Origin: Raja brachyura | Taxonomy: Eukaryota | Direction of reading: 5' to 3' | DNA length: 64,000 bases | Assembly (NCBI GenBank): GCA_963514005.1 | Contig: OY740790.1 | Coordinates: 4,340,001-4,404,000, forward strand | Part shown: positions 8,515 to 52,125 of the stretch, piece after piece | How the letters are laid out: the number at the start of each line of letters is the position of its first letter | Numbering within the stretch: position 1 is the first letter of the stretch | Translations under genes and position numbers: made by a program | The notes under the pieces: model-generated | The model's database searches: none | The model's input: only the letters and a program-made list of their open reading frames with translations | Told to the model about the DNA's origin: nothing

Positions 8515-9666
8515 CTAGTTCCTCCTTGTGTTCTTTGCCCTTGCCTTGGTCTTCTCCTGCCCCTTGGAGTTGCTTGGTTTCTCCGTGAGCGGAACCTCGT
8601 TTATCTTCACCATCTCGGTTATTTGTTCGTCGCGGGGTGACGGGGAATAAGGAGTTTTCCACTCGTCCGTGCCCGGCATGTTGAGATGTCTCACCACCAT
8701 CTTTGGCCTGGTTTTCTGTGGTTGGGGGGGGTACATTGACCCCCAGGGCAGTGCGGGCAGGTTGAAGAGATTGGCGTAGGGTTGATATGGAGAGGCGAAC
8801 GCCATCCCGTTGATGGCGGGCAGTGATGCTTGCGCAAACTTGTACAACTTCGCACTTTCCGGCCTAAAACGTTGCCTCTGTTGCTCGAAGTGAGGGGCGA
8901 CGTCAATGTAGGAAGGGTTGACGCCGGTGATGGTGGCGATCTGGTGGGCGTTGGCCAGGTCGGCAGAAGCTCTCTCGGGCAAGACGGGGTTATAAAGTGC
9001 GGTCCAGGGCACGCCGTTCACAAACCTGTGAAGGATGGCCAGCCATGTCCCGTTACTGATGGGATTAATGGTCACCCTGGGCCACAGCGCCGCCAACGTG
9101 CGGAGAGCCTCAGTGTTCCAGCCCGATTCGTAATGGCGGTCGCCGATATGGTAGAGCGCGGAAAAGTAGACGTCTAACCTCGTGCTCGGGTAGTTCAGTA
9201 AGAAATCGTGCATTTTCCCAATGCAGCCATGGGCTCGCTCGTTGCACGGGGTGTAATTGGAATATAGGCTGATGTACGCAATGTCTTCATAGGTGTACAT
9301 GAGTGCGTCCAGATAGCCCTCCATATCGAAGAACATTGCCTCTGGGTGTAGCTGGTACAAAGCACAGTTGGATACTTGCCCCTTCTGCACCAACGTGCCT
9401 GATGATAACTTTAGTTCATAAAAAACTAGATGACTCCCACGCTGTGGCTGAGCGTAGGGAAAGCCGAAGGTTTCATAAAATTCCATGTAGGATACGCGGG
9501 CCTCGTCTCCGGTTTTGATGTGATACGGGCACTTGGCACAACTTTCAGTGAAGTGCAGCCAGTAATATGGCTTCACCAGTGTGCCTTGTGGAGCTGTATA
9601 CTCCTCATATGTCAACGCCATACTGGATGCGTCATCTCCTCGCTTCCATGAGGGTGGAGCATCCAT
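8515..9666 (-). CDS. APOBEC4: APOBEC4, AID/APOBEC-family zinc-dependent deaminase-like protein (whole CDS in one exon; likely start at the second ATG, 9621, giving 368 aa)
   Basis: 383-aa ORF with YEEY..GTLVKPYYWL, CAKCPYHIKTG, HPEAM (HxE), LYSNYTPCNERAHGC (PCx6C, typical of APOBEC4), LAALWPRV and C-terminal VVRHLNMP, all matching vertebrate APOBEC4 as I recall it. ATG 9621 has strong Kozak context (agtATGG) and aligns with the mammalian start. Confidence 0.97.
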   Translation of the reverse strand: MDAPPSWKRGDDASSMALTYEEYTAPQGTLVKPYYWLHFTESCAKCPYHIKTGDEARVSYMEFYETFGFPYAQPQRGSHLVFYELKLSSGTLVQKGQVSNCALYQLHPEAMFFDMEGYLDALMYTYEDIAYISLYSNYTPCNERAHGCIGKMHDFLLNYPSTRLDVYFSALYHIGDRHYESGWNTEALRTLAALWPRVTINPISNGTWLAILHRFVNGVPWTALYNPVLPERASADLANAHQIATITGVNPSYIDVAPHFEQQRQRFRPESAKLYKFAQASLPAINGMAFASPYQPYANLFNLPALPWGSMYPPQPQKTRPKMVVRHLNMPGTDEWKTPYSPSPRDEQITEMVKINEVPLTEKPSNSKGQEKTKARAKNTRRN

Positions 9667-9745
9667 GCAGCATTCTGGAGCTCATAGCCATCACTCAAAC
9701 CTCTGTGCATTTGAACGATTGCATTAAGCCAAATGGAAGGGATAT

Positions 9746-9792: not shown

Positions 9793-10817
9793 TAGCAATG
9801 TTACAAAATTTTGAGATTAAAAAAATCAAGTCTGCAATTTATCCCATCAGATAAAGCATAAAAAGAAGTTTAATTTGACACCTAATTCACTTTCATATCT
9901 TCAGTATTAAGAAAGTTATGGCCATTTTCATACTCGGAAATTAGCATCTTGTTCCCCATTGCCTTTCAATTGACTTAACTCAAAAGCTGTGATCTAGAAC
10001 AGTCAAAAGCCCATAACTTTCTTAAAAATTAAGAGAACTCAATGCAATTTTCAGTTATTATAGATTGAAGCATTCTGAAACAAATATGAAACAATCTTAC
10101 TTGGATGGCCTGAAATTAAAGCATATAATTAGTTAGTTATCTAATTGTAGCTAATTACAAAATTCAATGAGTAGATCTAAACATCTATCCATTTCTTAAG
10201 AAAAGATAAACTTTTTTTAAATTGCCTAAGTGTCCAAATAACATTCACACAATAATCCACAATATAACATAATTTTTAAATCTCATTTTCATGAATTTAT
10301 AGGCCAAATGGAGGGTTTAATGCCTGTAAATTAATGGCCATTTAAATCAACTAGCGAGTGGCTTTTAGTGGAATGCGGTGGATTTGAACGTTGCGGTTTG
10401 CGGTGAAGTCGGTATGAAATACACTGCCGGTTCATACATTTTTTTTGTCCCCTTTTCGCAACATGAAAATGTGATTAAAGCCTCCCTAAAAACCAAGTTT
10501 TAATGTAAAAATAAACTGTGTAGCTTCTTTTATCGCCTACCTTAGGTCCGTTCCGCTGTCACCGTTCAGAGCTTTAGAAGATGATTTTTAAACTACGCTA
10601 GTTAATAAATAATCTAGCGTAGTTTAAAAATACCTTTATGAATGAAATGTCGGAGCGATTTCTCGTTAGCGCCGAAATCGCCCGACATTAATCGACTTAC
10701 ACTGCCTAGAAAAAATCGGCATTTTAAACCCGCCCCCCTCTGAAAGGCGCCAAAGTCGCGCACACGGGGAGCGGCAGAACTGCAGCGCTGCTCAAGGTAG
10801 GTATTGTAACATACCTA
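9793..10817. mobile_element. Non-autonomous DNA transposon, TAG...CTA termini, 7-bp TSD (superfamily unassigned)
   Basis: Ends TAGCAATGTTACAAAA / TATTGTAACATACCTA; flanks taatcaa / caatcaa; highly similar to 51115-52125. Confidence 0.85.
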
Positions 10818-30990: not shown

Positions 30991-31704
30991 GGTGCAGAAG
31001 TTTGAAAACGCACACCTCCAGATTCAGGGACAGTTTCTTCCCAGCTGTTATCAGGCAACTGAATTATCCTACCACAACCAGAGAGCAGTGCTGAACTACT
31101 GTGGCAAACTGGCTCCATTTCATCTGCCGAGTGAGTGCACAATACCCCTGCTGCCAGGCATGGATGAGAGAAACAGCCCACAGCATCGGGCCATGGCCGG
31201 CAGCTGCTAGAGGTGGAAACTCTAACCTTCGTGGAGTAAATCAATAACCAATGCAAGGAGTTTTCATAAGCCGGAGATAAAGGACAGCGCCACGCAGACT
31301 TACAAGAGGAGATCTAAGGTAGATCTGAATCTGTTAATAGAACAAGATAAAAGGTGGAGTGACTCAGCGGGTCTTATTATTAAACTGTGACCCCTGGTTC
31401 TGGACTCCCCCTACATCGGGAACATAGGGACGTAGGGCTCTTCTGCCACCTCTGAGCTTTTATGGGGGAGAATCCTATCCATCCAGTGACAACCTGTCTC
31501 CAACATTCCCCCACCTCTTCCCACCCCCCAGCCCCTACACAGCCTTCTATCCTCTCTGGACTTTTTTCTATCCACTGTGGGTGCAACAACGGTCTTGGCT
31601 TCTCTACTCCCCTGGCCCACTCAAACCGGAAAGGTCCCGACCTGAAACTACAGCCTTTTCGTTTAGGACCCTTTTTCCAGTCCGACATTAAATGTACCCA
31701 CCCA

Positions 31705-31930
31705 GACATGTCACCTATCCATGTTCTCCACAGATGCTGCCTGACCCGCTGAGTTACTCTAGCACTCTGTGAAACGTCACCTATCCATGTTCTCCAGAGA
31801 TGCTGCCTGACCCGCTGAGTTACTCCAGCACTCTGTGAAACGTCACCTATCCATGTTCTCCACAGATGCTGCCTGACCCGCTGAGTTACTCCAGCACTCT
31901 GTGAAACGTCACCTATCCATGTTCTCCACA
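31705..31930 (+). repeat. 66-bp tandem array derived from PLE pLTR (~3.4 units)
   Basis: Unit tgaaacgtcacctatccatgttctccacagatgctgcctgacccgctgagttactccagcactctg at 31770, 31836, 31902. Confidence 0.92.
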
Positions 31931-32940
31931 TAGGGAAAATATACATAATATAAGTTTAATAATAATATAATATAAATATACATTCAGTTTTGGACTAATC
32001 ATGCTTTTTTGTTGTTGATGGGGTGAGAAAAAGTAAATCTCTGAGGCTGGGCAAATATCCATGGGTCAGGCAAACTAGTTTAAATTGGACAAATTGCATC
32101 TTCACTTCAAATGAAATAAATTGGCTTGTGTAACCGTTGCTTAATCTTCAACTTGAACTCGTTTCCAGCATCTGCAGACTTCTTTGAATTAAAAAAAATA
32201 TTTTAAAATAGGGTTCGACTTTGTCAAAGTTTCACTCGTAAACCCAACATTTTGCATCTTTGAACCATGAATTGGAGACCCAAAAATCTCTGTCGAACTG
32301 GTTATCAAATGTACCAAGTGCTCCCGGAATGACACCAGCACTTGGGAACATTTTCATTGCAATTCTTCACTTTTCCTTCAAATTCGATTTTTTTTTAAAA
32401 ACAAAGGTCCAGCTTGTGAACTTTAAACAGCATTTTTTTTAATTTTTAAAATCCTTCGCAGGTTTCCTTCTTGGTTTGAGGGTTACTCGGATGTCTCAAT
32501 CCGATCTTCTTTGTTGCAACAAAGAGGTGCTTGTGTGAAATCCCAGTGAAGGCTGCTCAAAATATGAAGTAGCTTTCTGGAACTGCGGAGTTACGTCTCT
32601 CCCCCCCCCCCCCCCACCCTCTTTAAAGTGGGAGTCACTCAGTCTGTGTGGAGCACTGTGTCGATTAAAGCAGCTCAGCAGTTTACTTCCGTCAATTGTC
32701 CCCGGGCATCTCCCAGTCACTATCGGAAAAGGGAATTTCATCTGTCATATTGCCTGTCATATTCCGGGACTCAGCCCCGTGGAGCTTTGGTTTACCAGGG
32801 AGAGTTTGCTTTGAACCAGGAGTGTGGGCTATCTGCTGGATCCAGACCCTGTCTGTATCTGCAAAATGACTTGCTCAGAATCAACTCTGCTTGCTTCCGA
32901 CTATGGTCTGTGAGGCAAATGCAAAATATGGTCCAAAAGC

Positions 32941-34355: not shown

Positions 34356-34730
34356 CTGAGGAAGGGTCTCAACTCGAAACGTCACCTGCCCATGTTCTCC
34401 ACAGATGCTGCATGACCCGCTGAGTTACTCCAGCTCTCTGTGAAACGTCACCTATCCATGTTCTCCACAGATGCTGCCTGACCCGCTGAGTTACTCCAGC
34501 ACTCTGTGAAACGTCACCTGCCCATGTTCTCCACAGATGCTGCATGACCCGCTGAGTTACTCCAGCACTCTGTGAAACGTCACCTATCCATGTTCTCCAC
34601 AGATGCTGCCTGACCCGCTGAGTTACTCCAGCACTCTGAAACGTCACCTATCCATGTTCTCCACAGATGCTGCCTGACCCGCTGAGTTACTCCAGCACTC
34701 TGTGAAACGTCACCTATCCATGTTCTCCAC
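34356..34730 (+). repeat. 66-bp tandem array (~5.4 units) headed by a full hammerhead core
   Basis: CUGAGGA 34356-34362; units at 34375, 34441, 34507, 34573, 34637, 34703. Confidence 0.92.
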
Positions 34731-39742: not shown

Positions 39743-40489
39743 TGTGGGAATTGGAATCCTAGTGACAGCAAGGAAACAGGCCTTTCAGCCCATCTGTTTA
39801 AAATACGAGATTAAAATTGTGTATGGCCCCCCCGGTTTCATATCCCTGTTGTGGGATGTCTAGAATTTCTGAAATTAACACACTAGGTACAACATTCGGA
39901 GATCGAGGGGGTAATCACTGCGGTTTGCACCCCTCAAGGCTGTTGAAATTCCCTTCACTGTGTGCTAAACACCAGGCCATGAATTGGAGTTCTCTTCTGT
40001 GTGTAAATGGTCTTTACAAATGATTCATTATGGAGCAGGAGTTTCTAATTAGCTTATGTACCAGCGTAACCAAAACAGACTAACAGGTTGTTTGTTGTGG
40101 AAGAAGGAAATACAGATGCTGGTTTAAACCGAAAATAGACACAGAGAGTAATGTTGAGATTTAAAAAATCAAGCCTGTAAGCCCCATCAGATAAAGCATA
40201 AAAAGAAGTTTAATTTGACACCTAATTCACTTTCATATCTTCAGTATTAAAAAAGTTATGGTGATTTTCATACCCGGATATTAGCATCTTGTTCCCCTAT
40301 TGCTTTTCCATTGACTTAACACCAAAGCTGTGATTGAGGACAGTCAAAAGCCCTTAACTTTCTTAAAAATTAAGGGAACCAAATGAAAGTTTCAGTTATT
40401 ATAGATTGAAGCATTCTGAAACAAATATTAAGCATCTTACTTGGATGACCTGAAATTAAAGCATATAATTAGTTAGTTACCAAACTAGT

Positions 40490-41238
40490 GTCTAAATGGC
40501 GTCAAGTTGGGAAAAGGGGAAGTACAACGGGATCTGGGGGTCCTTGTACGTCAGTCTATGAAAGTAAGCATGCAGGTACAGCCGGCAGTGAAGAAAGCGA
40601 ATGGCATGTTGGCCTTTATAACAAGAGGAATTGAATATAGGAGCAAAGGGGTCCTTCTGCAGTTGTACAGAGCCCTAGTGAGACCACACCTGGAGTATTA
40701 TGTGCAGTTTTGGTCCCCTAATTTGAGGAAGGACATTCTTGCTATTGAGGGAGTGCAGTGTAGGTTTACAAGGTTAATTCCCGGGATGGTGGGACTGCAT
40801 ATGCTGAGAGAATGGAGCAGCTGGGCTTGTACACTCTGGAGTTTGGAAGGATGAGAGGATATCTTATTGAAACAAATAAGATTGTTAAGGGTTTGGACAC
40901 GCTAGAGGCAGGAAACATGTTCCCGATGTTGGGGGAGTCCAGAACCAGGGGCCACAGTTTAAGAATAAGGAGTAAGCCATTTAGAACAGAGACGAGGAAA
41001 CACTTTTTCTCACGGAGAGTGGTGAGTCTGTGGAATTCTCTGCCTCAGAGGGCGGTGGAGGTGGGTTCTCTGGATGCTTTCAAGAGAGAGCTAGATAGGG
41101 TTCTTAAAGATAGCGGAGTCAGGGGATATGGGGAGAAGGCAGGAACGGGGTACTGATTGGGGATGATCAGCCACGATCACATTGAATGGCTCGAAGGGCC
41201 GAATGGCCTACTCCTGCACCTATTGTTTTTTGTCTATT
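40490..41238 (+). mobile_element. CR1-clade LINE 3' end nested in a DNA transposon
   Basis: RDLGV..KKANGML..RPHLEY..WNSLP, frameshifted. Confidence 0.92.
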
Positions 41239-41395
41239 GTAGCTAATTACAAAATTGACCGTTGTGACGGAAATAGTAATAAACACCCAGACTGCCTTGA
41301 AAATTCAAAAGTGTGATATTCTCAAGATCAGAATTTGAATAGTATTATATTATATGCTGTAAGTCTGTAACAGATAGGTAAAGAAATTACAATTT

Positions 41396-41730
41396 CTAGC
41401 AATAGACCAAGTCTTTATGAAGATCAGTTGCTAGCTGGTACATTGGCATATCATAATCAGTAGCATCATCATACTCCTCAGATTGTAACCAATAAGCAAC
41501 TCTGTCCACCTTGTTTTTCCTCAACGTTTCAATTTTGGCATTTAAAAGTTTTTGCTCTTCAAACCATGCATGACATGCCTATCTGCGCACTACTTTCCCA
41601 ATAAGAATGTCATGTAGATCACCACTTTTGGAGTAGTCCAAATTTGGATAATCTCTGCGAATGCTATCTAAATCAGTTTCTTTTGCTGGGCATTTGGATT
41701 GATAATTTTGCATTTCTTCTTCGGAGACAT
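41396..41730 (-). pseudogene. Relic terminal exon inside the DNA transposon encoding a Spindlin/Tudor-like domain (one internal stop)
   Basis: Acceptor ttttcctttacattttaaacAG at 41732-41731, then 111 codons: VSEEEMQ...ILIGKVVRR*ACHAWFEEQ...RVAYWLQSEEYDDATDYDMPMYQLATDLHKDLVYC*. Confidence 0.6.
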
Positions 41731-42589
41731 CTGTTTAAAATGTAAAGGAAAATAAACACTGAACAGCATTAACAGAAACAAGTTATTATTAGCCATTTTA
41801 GAAAAAAAGGTAGAAATGATAAAGTTAAACACTAAAACAAATAGTAAATACCCAACATATTCATCAGTTTCATCAAATCAATTAAATTCTCCCAATCAAT
41901 CATATTCATCTAAATTCAATTACTAGATCTAAACATCTATCCATTTCTTAAGAAAAGGCTACATTTTTTAAATAGCCTAATTATCCAAATAACAAATAAC
42001 AAACTGATCCCATTCACACAAGAATTCACAATATAACATTATTTTTAAATCTCACTTTGGCATGAATTTATATGCCAAGTGGATGGAATTTAATGTCTTA
42101 ATTCCCATAAATTAATCCAGAAACATCCACTCTCAAGATAATCAAAATCATTATTTTTTGCACAATACATCTAACTAAAACTGCACTGTGGATATTTAGT
42201 ATGAGAATATTGATCATGGATAGACAATAACACAAAATACAGATGATTTAGATGTCTTTATGACATGATTGTGCAAAAAAATAATGAATATGATTATCTT
42301 GAGAGTGAATTTTTCTGTAATGTGATCGATTGGAATATGTGCCGTTGCTGTTGCCATAGATTTTAAGCCCATATCGGCAGGCAAGACACTGCCAACTGTT
42401 GCCGAAAAATTTTCAACATGTTTTTCGGCAGTCGCCTGTAATCGCCTAAAAAATCGACAGGCCCATATGTCCTATTTTCCCGTCTAGTGTCTTAAACTGA
42501 TCATGGTCTGCTGCCTCTGCAAATGGTATGTGCTTAATAGTATCATGCGGGAATGTGGTTCACAGACATTGACAGTTGTGCAGGAAGGA

Positions 42590-45270: not shown

Positions 45271-46889
45271 CACGTAGAACATAGAACAGTACAACACAGG
45301 AACAGGCCCTTCGGCCCACAATGCCTGTGCCAAACATGACACATAACCATTACCCCTCCATTCCCTGCCTATCCAAAAACCTGTTAAATGCCACTATTGT
45401 ATCTGCCTCTATCACTCCTGGCGACACACTCAAGGCGCACACCAACCTCTAATAACTTGCTCCACACATCTTTAAACTTTTCCCCTCTCTCGTTGAAGCT
45501 ATGCCCTCTAGTATTCCATCTCTGTCCTGGGAAAAAGGGGTGGCACGGTGGCGCAGCGGTAGAGTTGCTGGATTACACCGATTGCATTGCCAGAGTCCCG
45601 GGTTTGATCCTGACTGCAGGTGCTATCAGCACAGAGTTTGTACGTTTTCCCCTTGACCTGCATGGGGTTTTTTTCCGGGATCTTCAGTTTCCTCCCACAC
45701 TCCAAAGACGTGCAGAATTGTAGGTTCATTGCCTTTGTATAAATGTAAATTGTCGCTAGTGTGTGCAGCGTAGTTTAATGCGTGGGGATCACTGGTTGAC
45801 TTGGACTCAGTGGGCTGAAGGGCCTGATACAGTGCTGTATCTATAAACTAAACTAAAGAAAGGTTTTGACTGTCTGGTTAAGATATGAGCTCATGGGCTC
45901 AGTGGTCTGAGGGCTATAGAAAGAATCTTGCACTTTGCTGACTTTCACAAGCAATGTTAAACTGAGAGCAACGAGGTGAAGGCAATTGTTTGTTTTAGAG
46001 AGATGGCAAGAAAATAGACCCTTCCGCCCACTGAGTCCATGCCAACCAACGATCACCCGTACACTAGTCCTATATCCTTCACACTAGGGGCAATTTACAG
46101 AAGTCAATTTACCTACAAACCAGGACATCTCTGGATTATGGGAGGAAACCCACGAGGGTCACAGAGAGAAAGTAGAAACTCCGTCCAGACAGCACCCGTA
46201 GTCAGGATCGAACCCGGGGCTCTGGCGCTGTAAGGCAGCAACTCTACCGCTGCGCCACCGTGCCGACCAATTCACTTGATGCTAAGGGAGTTGTATGTTA
46301 GCCCTCTGCAAACTTTAGAACCCAATGAGTTGTTCCTTCTTCATAAGTTATTTGAGCAGAATTAGGCCATTTGGCTCATCAAGTCCACTCCATCATTCAA
46401 TCAAGGCTGATCTATCTTTCCCTTGCAACCCCATTCTCCAGCCTTCTCCCCATAACCCCAGACACCCGTACTAATCAAGAATCTGTCAATCTCCGCTTTA
46501 AAAATACCCAATGCCTTGGCCTCCATAGCCGTCTGTGGCAATGAATTCCACAGATTCACCGCACCTCTGACCACAGCAATCCCTCCATGTGGCCTCCTGA
46601 TAAATGGATTGCTTTTTGAATTCGTGAAAGTGTTTAACCAAGGTTGCAAATGTTCCAAAATCAGTTCTTTGGATCCTCATCTGACACTTAAAATGATGAA
46701 TAATAGTCAACAGTGGAGTATTTCAGAATTCACTTCCAAGTCGTGTCCAAATCTGCTAATTGCCTGGCTTCCAACCAAGTCATCTATCAAATGCAATTGT
46801 AGACCAACAAAACTGGTGTTTGTAATATCCTTTGCACCCGAGCTTGATCACTTCAAACTGATACCAAACTGGACGTAGCATTCTGAGAT

Positions 46890-47472
46890 GGAGACAAAAT
46901 GCTAGAGTAACTCAGCGGGTCAGGGAGCATCTGTGGAGAACATGGATAGGTGACGTTTCACAGAGTGCTGGAGTAACTCAGCGGGTCAGGCAGCATCTGT
47001 GGAGAACATGGATAGGTGACGTTTCACAGAGTGCTGGAGTAACTCAGCGGGTCAGGCAGCATCTGTGGAGAACATGGATAGGTGGCGATTCACAGAGTGC
47101 TGGAGTAACTCAGCGGGTCAGGCAGCATCTGTGGAGAACATGGATAGGTGATGTTTCACAGAGTGCTGGAGTAACTCAGCAGGTCAGGCAGCATCTGTGG
47201 AGAACATGGAGAGGTGACGTTTCACAGAGTGCTGGAGCAACTCAGCGGGTCAGGCAGCATCTGTGGAGAACATGGATAGGTGACGTTTCACAGAGTGCTG
47301 GAGTAACTCAGCGGGTCAGGCAGCATCTCTGGAGAACATGGATAGGTGACGTTTCACAGAGTGCTGGAGCAACTCAGCGGGTCAGGCAGCATCTGTGGAG
47401 AACATGGATAGGTGACGTTTCACAGAGTGCTGGAGTAACTCAGCAGGTCAGGCAGCATCTCTAGACAACATA
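46890..47472 (-). repeat. 66-bp tandem array (~8.5 units)
   Basis: gag(t/c)aactcagc recurs every 66 nt from 46905 to 47433 (9 times). Confidence 0.95.
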
Positions 47473-48959
47473 GAGTTCACTCCCTGTGTCCACGTGGGTT
47501 TTCTCCGGGTGCCCCGGTTTCCTCCCACCCTTCCTCCCAAAGACTTGCCGGTTTGTAGCTCAATTGTCTTCAGTAAGTTGTGAAATTGTCCCTGGTCTGT
47601 AGGATAGTGTTTGTGTATGGGGCGATCGCTGGTCGGCAGGGTCTGGGTAGGACGAAGGGCCTGTTTCCGTGCTCTATCTCTAGTTTAAACAGAGGAGGTA
47701 GTTGAGGCAGGTACTATAACAACAGTTAAAAGACACTTGGAGATGGGTTTAGAGGGACATGGGCGAATGCGGGCAGGTGGGACTAGCTGGGTTGGCATGG
47801 GCAAGTTGGGCCGAAGGGCCTGTTTCCCTGCTGTGTGACTCTGACTCTCTCTCACTTTATGAATCCTGGCCTTTGCGTTTGTTGCCCTTTTTGATGGCCG
47901 TAATCTGCCTTTTGCTTTGCATACGTTATTTGCCTCTGAGGCACCGACTTTTTAAAACTTTTTGACAACAATTGCCAATTGTCTTCCTCTTTAGTCCAGG
48001 ACATTTGATACTTTTCAATCCTGGGCAACCCCCAATGCTGATTTACACGTGGGTAGCTTCCAAACTAAGGGCGGCACGGTGGTGCAGCGGTAGAGTTGCT
48101 GCCTCACAGCGCCAGAGACCCGGGTTCCATCCTGACTACGCGTGCTGTCTGTACGGAGTTTGTACGTTTGTGCAGGTTTGTAGGTTAATTGGCTTCTGTA
48201 ACTTGTTCCTAGTCTGTGCGATAGTAGTGTACGGATGCTCGCTGGTTGGCGCAGACTCGGTGGGCTGAAGGTCCCGTTTCCGTGCTGTATCGTTAAACTA
48301 ACCATGCAAAATAACAGTATGAACAATGAAAATCCCTCATAATTTGAACTAATATTTTCTGTGCACTTGACAGCCATCTAACTAACCAAAACCCCAATCC
48401 CTCTTCTTTCCCCCTCTCTTCTCTGGACCCTACCAGAAACTGCATCCATTTCCCTCATTATCTGGCCCCTCTCCTTATTTACCCTCCCCTTCCGTTGCTA
48501 TCCCCCCCCCCCCCCCCTTCCATTACTATCCTCTCCTCCAGCTTCACATTTCGTGCCTCCTCTCTTCTTGTCTCACAGGCTTAAGTTAATTATTTTTATC
48601 TCTTGCATTTTTGTCCACCTATCTGCCAGTTAAACCACCCCCAACCTCACCTGTATCCACCTGTCACTTGCAGGAACAAGTAACTGCAGATGCTGCTTTT
48701 TAACCAAAGATGGCCAAAGATACCAAAGTCCTGGAGTAACTCTGACAGCATCCCCAGAGGAAAAGGATAGGTGACGTTTCAGGTCAGGGCTGAAATGTTC
48801 CCTCGCCTTTTCTCCAGAGATATTGCCAGCTGCTGAGTTACTCCAGCATTTTGTGTCTCTCCACCTATCACTTGCTTGGCTTTGTCCCATCCAGTCTTAT
48901 AAGCCTCCTGTCTCTCCCCCCCCCCCCCCACCACCTCCCCCATCACCATTACAAATGCC

Positions 48960-49280
48960 CTGAAGAAGGGTCCCGACCTGAAACGTCACCTATCCATGTT
49001 CTCCGGAGATGCTGCCTGACCCGCTGAGTTACTCCAGCACTCTGTGAAACGTCACCTATCCATGTTCTCCGGAGATGCTGCCTGACCCGCTGAGTTACTC
49101 CAGCACTCTGTGAAACGTCACCTATCCATGTTCTCCACAGATGCTGCCTGACCCGCTGAGTTACTCCAGCACTCTGTGAAACGTCACCTATCCATGTTCT
49201 CCACAGATGCTGCCTGACCCGCTGAGTTACTCCAGCACTTTGTCGCTTTTTATTTTGGAAATCAGCATCTGCAGTTCCTT
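48960..49280 (+). repeat. 66-bp tandem array (4 units) headed by a full hammerhead core, ending in the normal pLTR tail
   Basis: CUGAAGA 48960-48966; units at 48979, 49045, 49111, 49177. Confidence 0.92.
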
Positions 49281-49628
49281 GGTCTCCTACCATAATGTGT
49301 TCAGATTTTTTTTTGACCACGTTCCAGGGACTGATGCAACAGCAAACTCCATCCCAATGCTTGCAATGGGCTTCGGACTGAAGGAAATCTGGTTAAGAAA
49401 CTGGACTAGAGGCATCAATGCCTGGAAAACTTGGCAGTATCATCATTATATTTATTGCCTGCTAATCACATGACAAAACATTAAATCAAAAACATCTGAT
49501 AGTTTTGTTGGAAGGAACTGCAGATGCTGGTTTAAACCGAAGATAGACACAAAAAGGTGGAGTAACTCAGCGGGTCAGTCAGCGTCTCTGGAGAGAAGGA
49601 ATAGGTGACGTTTCAGGCCGAGACTCTT

Positions 49629-51114: not shown

Positions 51115-52125
51115 TAGCAATGTTACCAAATTTTGAGGTTTTAAAAATCAAGTCTGCAATTTATCCCATCAGATAAAGCATAAAAAGAAGTTTAATTTGA
51201 CACCTAATTTACTTTCATATCTTCAGTATTAAGAAAGTTATGGCCATTTTCATACTCGGAAATTAGCATCTTGCTTCCCATTGCCTTTCAATTGACTTAA
51301 CTCAAAAGCTGTGATCTGGAAAAGTTAAAAGTCCATAACATTCTTAAAAATTAAGAGAACTCAATGAAATTTTCAGTTATTATAGATTGAAGCATTCTGA
51401 AACAAATATTAAACAATCTTACTTGGATTACCTGAAATTAAAGCATATAATTAGTTAGTTATCTAATTGTAGCTAATTACAAAATTCAATGAGCAGATCT
51501 AAACATCTATCAATTTCTTAAGAAAAGATAATTTTTTTTTAAATTGCCTAAGTGTCCAAATAACATTCACACAATAATCCACAATATAACTTAATTTTTA
51601 AATCTCATTTTCATGAATTTCTGGGCCAAATGGAAGGAATTTAGTGTTTTATGCTGTAAATTAATGGCCATTTAAATCAACTAGCGAGTGGGTTTTAGTG
51701 GAATGCGGTGGATTAGAACGTTGCGGTTAGCGGTGAAGTCGGGGGGAAAAATACTGGGGGTTCATACATTTTTTGGGGACCCCATTTCGCAACATAAAAA
51801 TATTATTAATGCCTCCCGAAAAACCAACTTTAATATAAAAATAAAGTATTTACCTTTTTTTCTCCCCTACGCAAAATGCTTCCGGTTGTCTGCGGTCACG
51901 GCTTTTGAAGGTGATTTTTAAATTACTCTAGTTAATAAATAATCTAGAGTAATTTAAAAATACCACCATTGATGAAATGTCGGAGCGATTTTTCTTCAGC
52001 AACGAAATTGCCCGACATTCATCGATTATCCAGGCCTGTGGAAAAACGGCACTTTAAGCCCGCCCACCTCTGCAAGGAGCGGCAGAAGTGCAGCGCCGGT
52101 AAAGATAAGTTTTGTAACATACCTA
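51115..52125. mobile_element. Second copy of the TAG...CTA DNA transposon
   Basis: Same termini; perfect 7-bp TSD caaatat 51108-51114 / 52126-52132. Confidence 0.88.

Follow-up and report, generated by a model that had tools for sequence, protein, structure and literature searches.

The window analysed here, a stretch of 64,000 nucleotides from Raja brachyura (contig OY740790.1 of assembly GCA_963514005.1, positions 4,340,001 to 4,404,000), harbors on its minus strand a transposon remnant which we regard, with a probability of about 0.8, as a non-autonomous, internally deleted and dead copy of a hAT-like element, whose parent transposase appears to end in a Spindlin-like domain likely to bind methylated lysine or arginine. 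The start and the end of the transposase gene are fused out of frame in this copy, as a frame opened by an ATG at 41730 represents the N-terminus and the segment 41683-41399 the C-terminus of the full-length proteins. An initial annotation had reported a splice acceptor followed by 111 codons with one internal stop, and this arrangement is present as described: a T-rich tract and a CAG (AG at 41732-41731) precede 111 codons (41731-41399), which are interrupted by a single TAG at 41581-41579 and end in a TAG at 41398-41396, and the peptide quoted is the translation of 41731-41399. The stretch also lies, as had been stated, in a segment (~41911-41257) without counterpart in the two short copies of the family at 9793-10817 and ~51115-52125.

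Fused start and end of the transposase gene

The 111-codon frame cannot be regarded as a chance open reading frame (ORF), since a search of 1.84 billion representative proteins yielded 101 matches at E<=0.001 (22 at <=1e-10, best value 1.6e-28). P0007, P0032, P0050, P0053, and P0056 were dropped from these matches as multi-stretch repetitive false hits. The true matches are the C-termini of proteins of 860-1030 amino acids, nearly all of them uncharacterised, and the named hosts comprise a chiton, limpets, snails, Hydra, a priapulid, a crinoid, a sponge, and bony fish. The view that the 111 codons form one coding exon was not borne out: homology begins only at 41683, exactly at this position in 27 tblastn matches, which corresponds to residue 863 of the closest matching protein, P0107; 41683-41399 shares 62% identity with its residues 863-960. 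The preceding 15 codons of the read-through frame are unlike those of the relatives, with BLOSUM62 scores of -10 to +1 against six close ones, and the DNA similarity to the closest locus, L002, begins at the same place as the protein homology, on the 41683 side.

These 15 codons make sense in another frame. The ATG at 41730, directly after the AG, opens a frame that reads MSPKKKCKIINPNAQ, overlaps the 111-codon frame, and terminates after 20 codons. Its peptide ranked first of 1179 ATG-started 15-codon peptides of the window when scored against the N-termini of 47 relatives (mean top-5 score of 38.6, runner-up 24.8), and the N-termini of P0107, P0108, and P0115 match it. Positions 41686-41730 (minus strand) are thus read as the beginning of the transposase, 15 codons including the start codon, with a basic N-terminus resembling a nuclear localization signal. 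The edges of protein and DNA homology and the bridging contigs place the junction with the C-terminal part at 41684-41685 (minus strand), where ~850 internal codons were deleted out of frame; the lost part comprised a coiled coil, the DDE core, and the insertion domain. The junction is spanned, with at least 31 bases per side, by three contigs that derive from two organisms (X1 record 3; X2 records 20 and 21), and the deletion is therefore a family trait common to species.

Probable acceptor site and introns

It had also been proposed that the 111 codons are a terminal exon, spliced to further exons of the transposase which lie upstream and are recoverable, or were lost. This alternative draws on the good acceptor-like sequence and on a GT-AG intron at about residue 825, which is found in 7 of 41 related metagenome loci used for the intron comparison (L006, L007, L010, L012, L017, L022, and L023) and sets the domain on a terminal exon. 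The junction in the window, however, is at residue 863 and not at 825, and the read-through frame lacks the expected residues over the first 15 codons past the acceptor, where a different frame matches the N-terminus. In addition, a start codon directly follows the acceptor, and the catalytic part is deleted between 41685 and 41684, with no catalytic remnant or other transposase match elsewhere in the window at E<0.01. Moreover, acceptor-like sites occur just 5' of the ATG in the relatives: a YAG ends 4-8 nucleotides upstream of it in 9 of the 10 loci reaching the start, several of which are near-duplicates. Because of this recurrence, the pyrimidine-rich tract and CAG at 41731-41760 (minus strand) are most likely a real acceptor that forms part of an intron in the 5' untranslated region (5'-UTR), of which they would represent the 3' end, and we consider a terminal exon extremely unlikely.

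The description of the parent element as intron-containing thus holds in part. A 5'-UTR intron is likely and the residue-825 intron exists in some loci, but L003, L011, and L016 each consist of one ORF (929-995 amino acids), and L002 is uninterrupted over residues 281-960, leaving these loci without an intron in the coding region. The residue-825 intron is 248-2052 bases long and puts a helix and the Spindlin-like domain on a separate exon; a sub-lineage either gained or retained it.

The Spindlin-like domain and its decay in the window copy

According to homology, modeling, and fold searches, the minus-strand segment 41396-41683 comprises the last ~95 transposase codons, namely a short helical linker, one Spindlin/Tudor-like domain (~41605-41399), and the stop codon. 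The Tudor-like identity suggested initially is upheld by these searches: the best profile and fold matches of the domain are to Spindlin, and the predicted model of the intact relative P0010 (predicted local distance difference test score, pLDDT, of 97) forms a Tudor-like barrel which matches repeat 2 of Spindlin1 best. The expected Pfam assignment to Spin-Ssty did not materialize, as neither the window frame nor 58 relatives carrying the domain gave a match above cut-off, and only sub-threshold matches to PTM_DIR17_Tudor, Agenet, and LBR_tudor were obtained. The domain shares with the Spin/Ssty repeats of Spindlin1/2/3/4 the VG..I.H.W start, the strand order, the closing helix, the 'D....DL' end, and aromatic residues at the putative cage positions. 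It differs from them by an insertion of ~8 residues before the fourth strand, by sequence identities of 15-28%, and by a similarity that stays under the Pfam and Z thresholds. While Spindlin contains three tandem repeats, the domain is present once in 87 of 87 proteins carrying it and is fused to a transposase, which it terminates as initially proposed: the whole domain lies within 15 amino acids of the end in 75 of 118 relatives. The aromatic cage of Spindlin1 consists of F141, W151, Y170, and Y177; all four equivalent positions are conserved as aromatics, three of them aligned by profile and the fourth placed by inference. An Asp equivalent to D184 of Spindlin1 is conserved (55 of 58), and a surface loop of the domain is acidic, not basic.

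The window copy itself has decayed. Compared with its relatives, it lacks two codons after 'QKL', including the second cage-equivalent Tyr, and one near the end, and it carries a premature stop at 41579-41581 (minus strand), where the relatives have Lys. Family contigs from four runs were placed on 41250-42480, and almost the entire depth at 41581 shows another base (8962/8978, 7925/7935, 53895/54225, and 268/268), so the stop is private to the window copy. The frame of the family is therefore not broken by this stop, and it is likely to be fully open, as far as the contigs tell. Among the family differences listed, which cover 40 of 125 substitutions and 12 of 33 indels, 11 coding differences between window copy and family fall on codon positions 1/2/3 in a ratio of 4/3/4.

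Such a family might instead use the in-frame ATG at 41713 to express a small, stand-alone protein with the Tudor domain, acting as a regulator or in a domesticated role. The ATG is present, the family lacks the stop of the window copy, and P0005 is likewise a short protein joining the N-terminus to the C-terminal domain. Against this, the first ATG (41730) opens the overlapping 20-codon frame, the listed differences are spread over the codon positions as in neutral decay, and the window copy has the stop and lacks one cage-equivalent Tyr, making this proposal very improbable.

Relatives and assignment to the hAT superfamily

The initial label of an unclassified element is superseded, as the transposase is hAT-like in terms of modeled structure. 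The predicted structures of relatives contain a DDE ribonuclease H (RNase H) core with a helical insertion domain like that of Hermes, and this core is Hermes-like in comparison with the known structures (PDB 8edg, 4d1q, 2bw3, and 6dwz). The hAT signature consists of D, D, and E, the second D being followed by CxxH. In our alignment of the core (A5), D11 (82/83), D87 (85/86), and E368 (86/86) are conserved, as are C112, H115, and R188; the catalytic roles of D11, D87, and E368 are inferred from their positions. The parent differs from Hermes in several respects. It would have ~960 amino acids compared to 612 (a length given in a passage of PMC10368747), and it contains an N-terminal coiled coil as well as an additional C-terminal helix and the Spindlin-like barrel. 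Although a BED zinc finger at the N-terminus is stated, in the same source, to be predicted for all hAT transposases (PMC10368747), the first 340 residues of the relatives contain only three scattered conserved Cys/His columns instead of a BED finger pattern, and the transposase proteins scanned gave no Pfam match to zf-BED. Likewise, the Pfam hAT C-terminal dimerisation domain was not matched in 28 core proteins, nor in the other Pfam scans.

Short terminal inverted repeats are found in the short copies, at the right end of L002, and at both ends of L011. Target duplications of 7 bp flank the two short copies (7/7 and 6/7 matching), which are the only two informative insertions, and none was seen at L011. 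hATw is an animal hAT group with 7-bp duplications, and the family resembles it in this feature, in the TAG..CTA ends, and in its hosts (such as Hydra and marine invertebrates). The duplication differs from the 8 bp of Hermes and of hAT elements in general, and lengths of 5, 6, and 7 bp are mentioned for some subgroups (PMC12730594). The label hAT-hATw occurs in PMC12905397, and Repbase hAT entries marked '7-bp TSD' appear in PMC4455052, yet the fungal hAT7 also produces 7-bp duplications and clusters with Ac/Tam3, as noted in PMC12730594.

Some relatives show unusual architectures. P0005, P0026, and P0055 are short proteins in which the transposase N-terminus is joined to the C-terminal domain, which suggests that internally deleted derivatives have arisen repeatedly in this transposase lineage. 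The domain or transposase is joined to an N-terminal part unlike this family in P0070, to a reverse transcriptase in P0225, and to a BTB domain in P0160; these three joins may be gene-prediction chimeras.

Possible function of the parent transposase

The parent enzyme would combine a Hermes-like RNase H core (D, D, CxxH, R, E) with a long helix and the Spindlin-like barrel, and could have mobilised the deleted element in trans. The four conserved aromatics may make up a methyl-binding cage by which the transpososome is tethered to marked nucleosomes and its choice of insertion site is biased, a model which we put forward tentatively and at somewhat less than even odds. Alternatively, the barrel may be a structural SH3/Tudor-type module serving oligomerisation or the binding of DNA or of a non-histone partner, without any steering by histone marks. 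We consider this main rival about as likely as the tethering model. The conservation of the four cage-equivalent aromatics and of the D184-matching Asp speaks against it, as do the acidic rather than basic surface loop and the K4me3 pocket of Spindlin1, which is built by a single repeat, repeat 2, the very one best matched by the model.

Returning to the tethering model, its wider form is more speculative still: a widespread animal lineage of BED-less hAT elements may carry a single Spindlin-type methyl-lysine reader and pick insertion sites by histone mark, and the mobile repeat may be related to the sequence from which the triple-repeat Spindlin genes arose. Mobile elements with chromatin readers include the chromoviruses with their chromodomain integrases and RAG2 with its PHD finger. 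In these cases, too, a recombinase is linked to a methyl-lysine reader or works together with one, but the reader fold and the element class are different, and binding and targeting by the domain described here are putative. We know of few cut-and-paste DNA transposases with their own chromatin reader, and in literature listings outside Repbase Reports we found no hAT transposase described as carrying a Spindlin-type domain. Intact natural members (e.g., XP_064605117.1) make a histone-mark-dependent target choice by a hAT enzyme testable, a question relevant to transposon-host coevolution and to the steering of gene-delivery transposons, and the single repeat may inform on the origin of the Spindlin repeats. 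The window copy is a dead fossil, and its value lies in the link which it provides between this transposase lineage and an abundant family of non-coding repeats.

Layout of the long element and the short copies

Two parts of the long element, 41912-42116 and 40150-40479, recur in the two short copies. Its 5' non-coding region covers 41761-42317 (minus strand), as judged from the sequence shared with the short copies and from family contigs, whose depth is far lower beyond 42300; the left end is possibly located at ~42490. An imperfect palindrome of 200 bp (42118-42317), with 42-nucleotide arms that are 90% complementary, is missing in the short copies. Downstream of the gene, 3' non-coding DNA of the element extends over 41240-41395 (minus strand), covered by family contigs and rejoining the short copies at ~41257-41243, up to an inserted 5'-truncated fragment of a long interspersed nuclear element (LINE) at 40481-41240 (plus strand). 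This fragment, which we take to be of the CR1 type, has many copies in the window at 75-92% identity and contains ORFs at 40489-40854 and 40764-41156. The right (3') subterminal region follows at 40146-40480 (minus strand) with 88-90% identity to both short copies; its terminal repeat is damaged in the long copy, while the equivalent right end of a short copy matches the 3' end of L002 with an alignment score of 119 (shuffle maximum, 58). The same 12-mer occurs at the truncated LINE end (40485-40496) and near the possible left end (42484-42495), probably by chance.

Both short family members are non-coding and lie on the minus strand. The one at 9793-10817 has TAG..CTA ends, imperfect terminal repeats of ~14-16 bp, and the target duplication with 6 of 7 matches, and the one at 51115-52125 is flanked by the perfect duplication ATATTTG. 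A second deletion (41912 to ~41257) might have produced the short family, and the window copy would later have decayed and received the LINE insertion. The left halves of the short copies (10325-10817 and ~51665-52125) are unrelated to 42116-42490 of the long copy, so a simple deletion of the long family does not account for the short one; the left ends of the two families would either differ or have been exchanged.

Other features of the window

The window consists of repeat-rich animal DNA with many LINE fragments. An intact ORF of 388 codons for an APOBEC4-like deaminase is located at 8515-9681 on the minus strand (Pfam APOBEC4, E 3.4e-17), and the short transposon copy at 9793-10817 lies ~110 bases upstream of it, near a likely splice acceptor. 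Tandem arrays of a ~66-base unit derived from a common repeat tail occupy 31380-31955, 34440-34710, 46862-47464, and 48949-49392.
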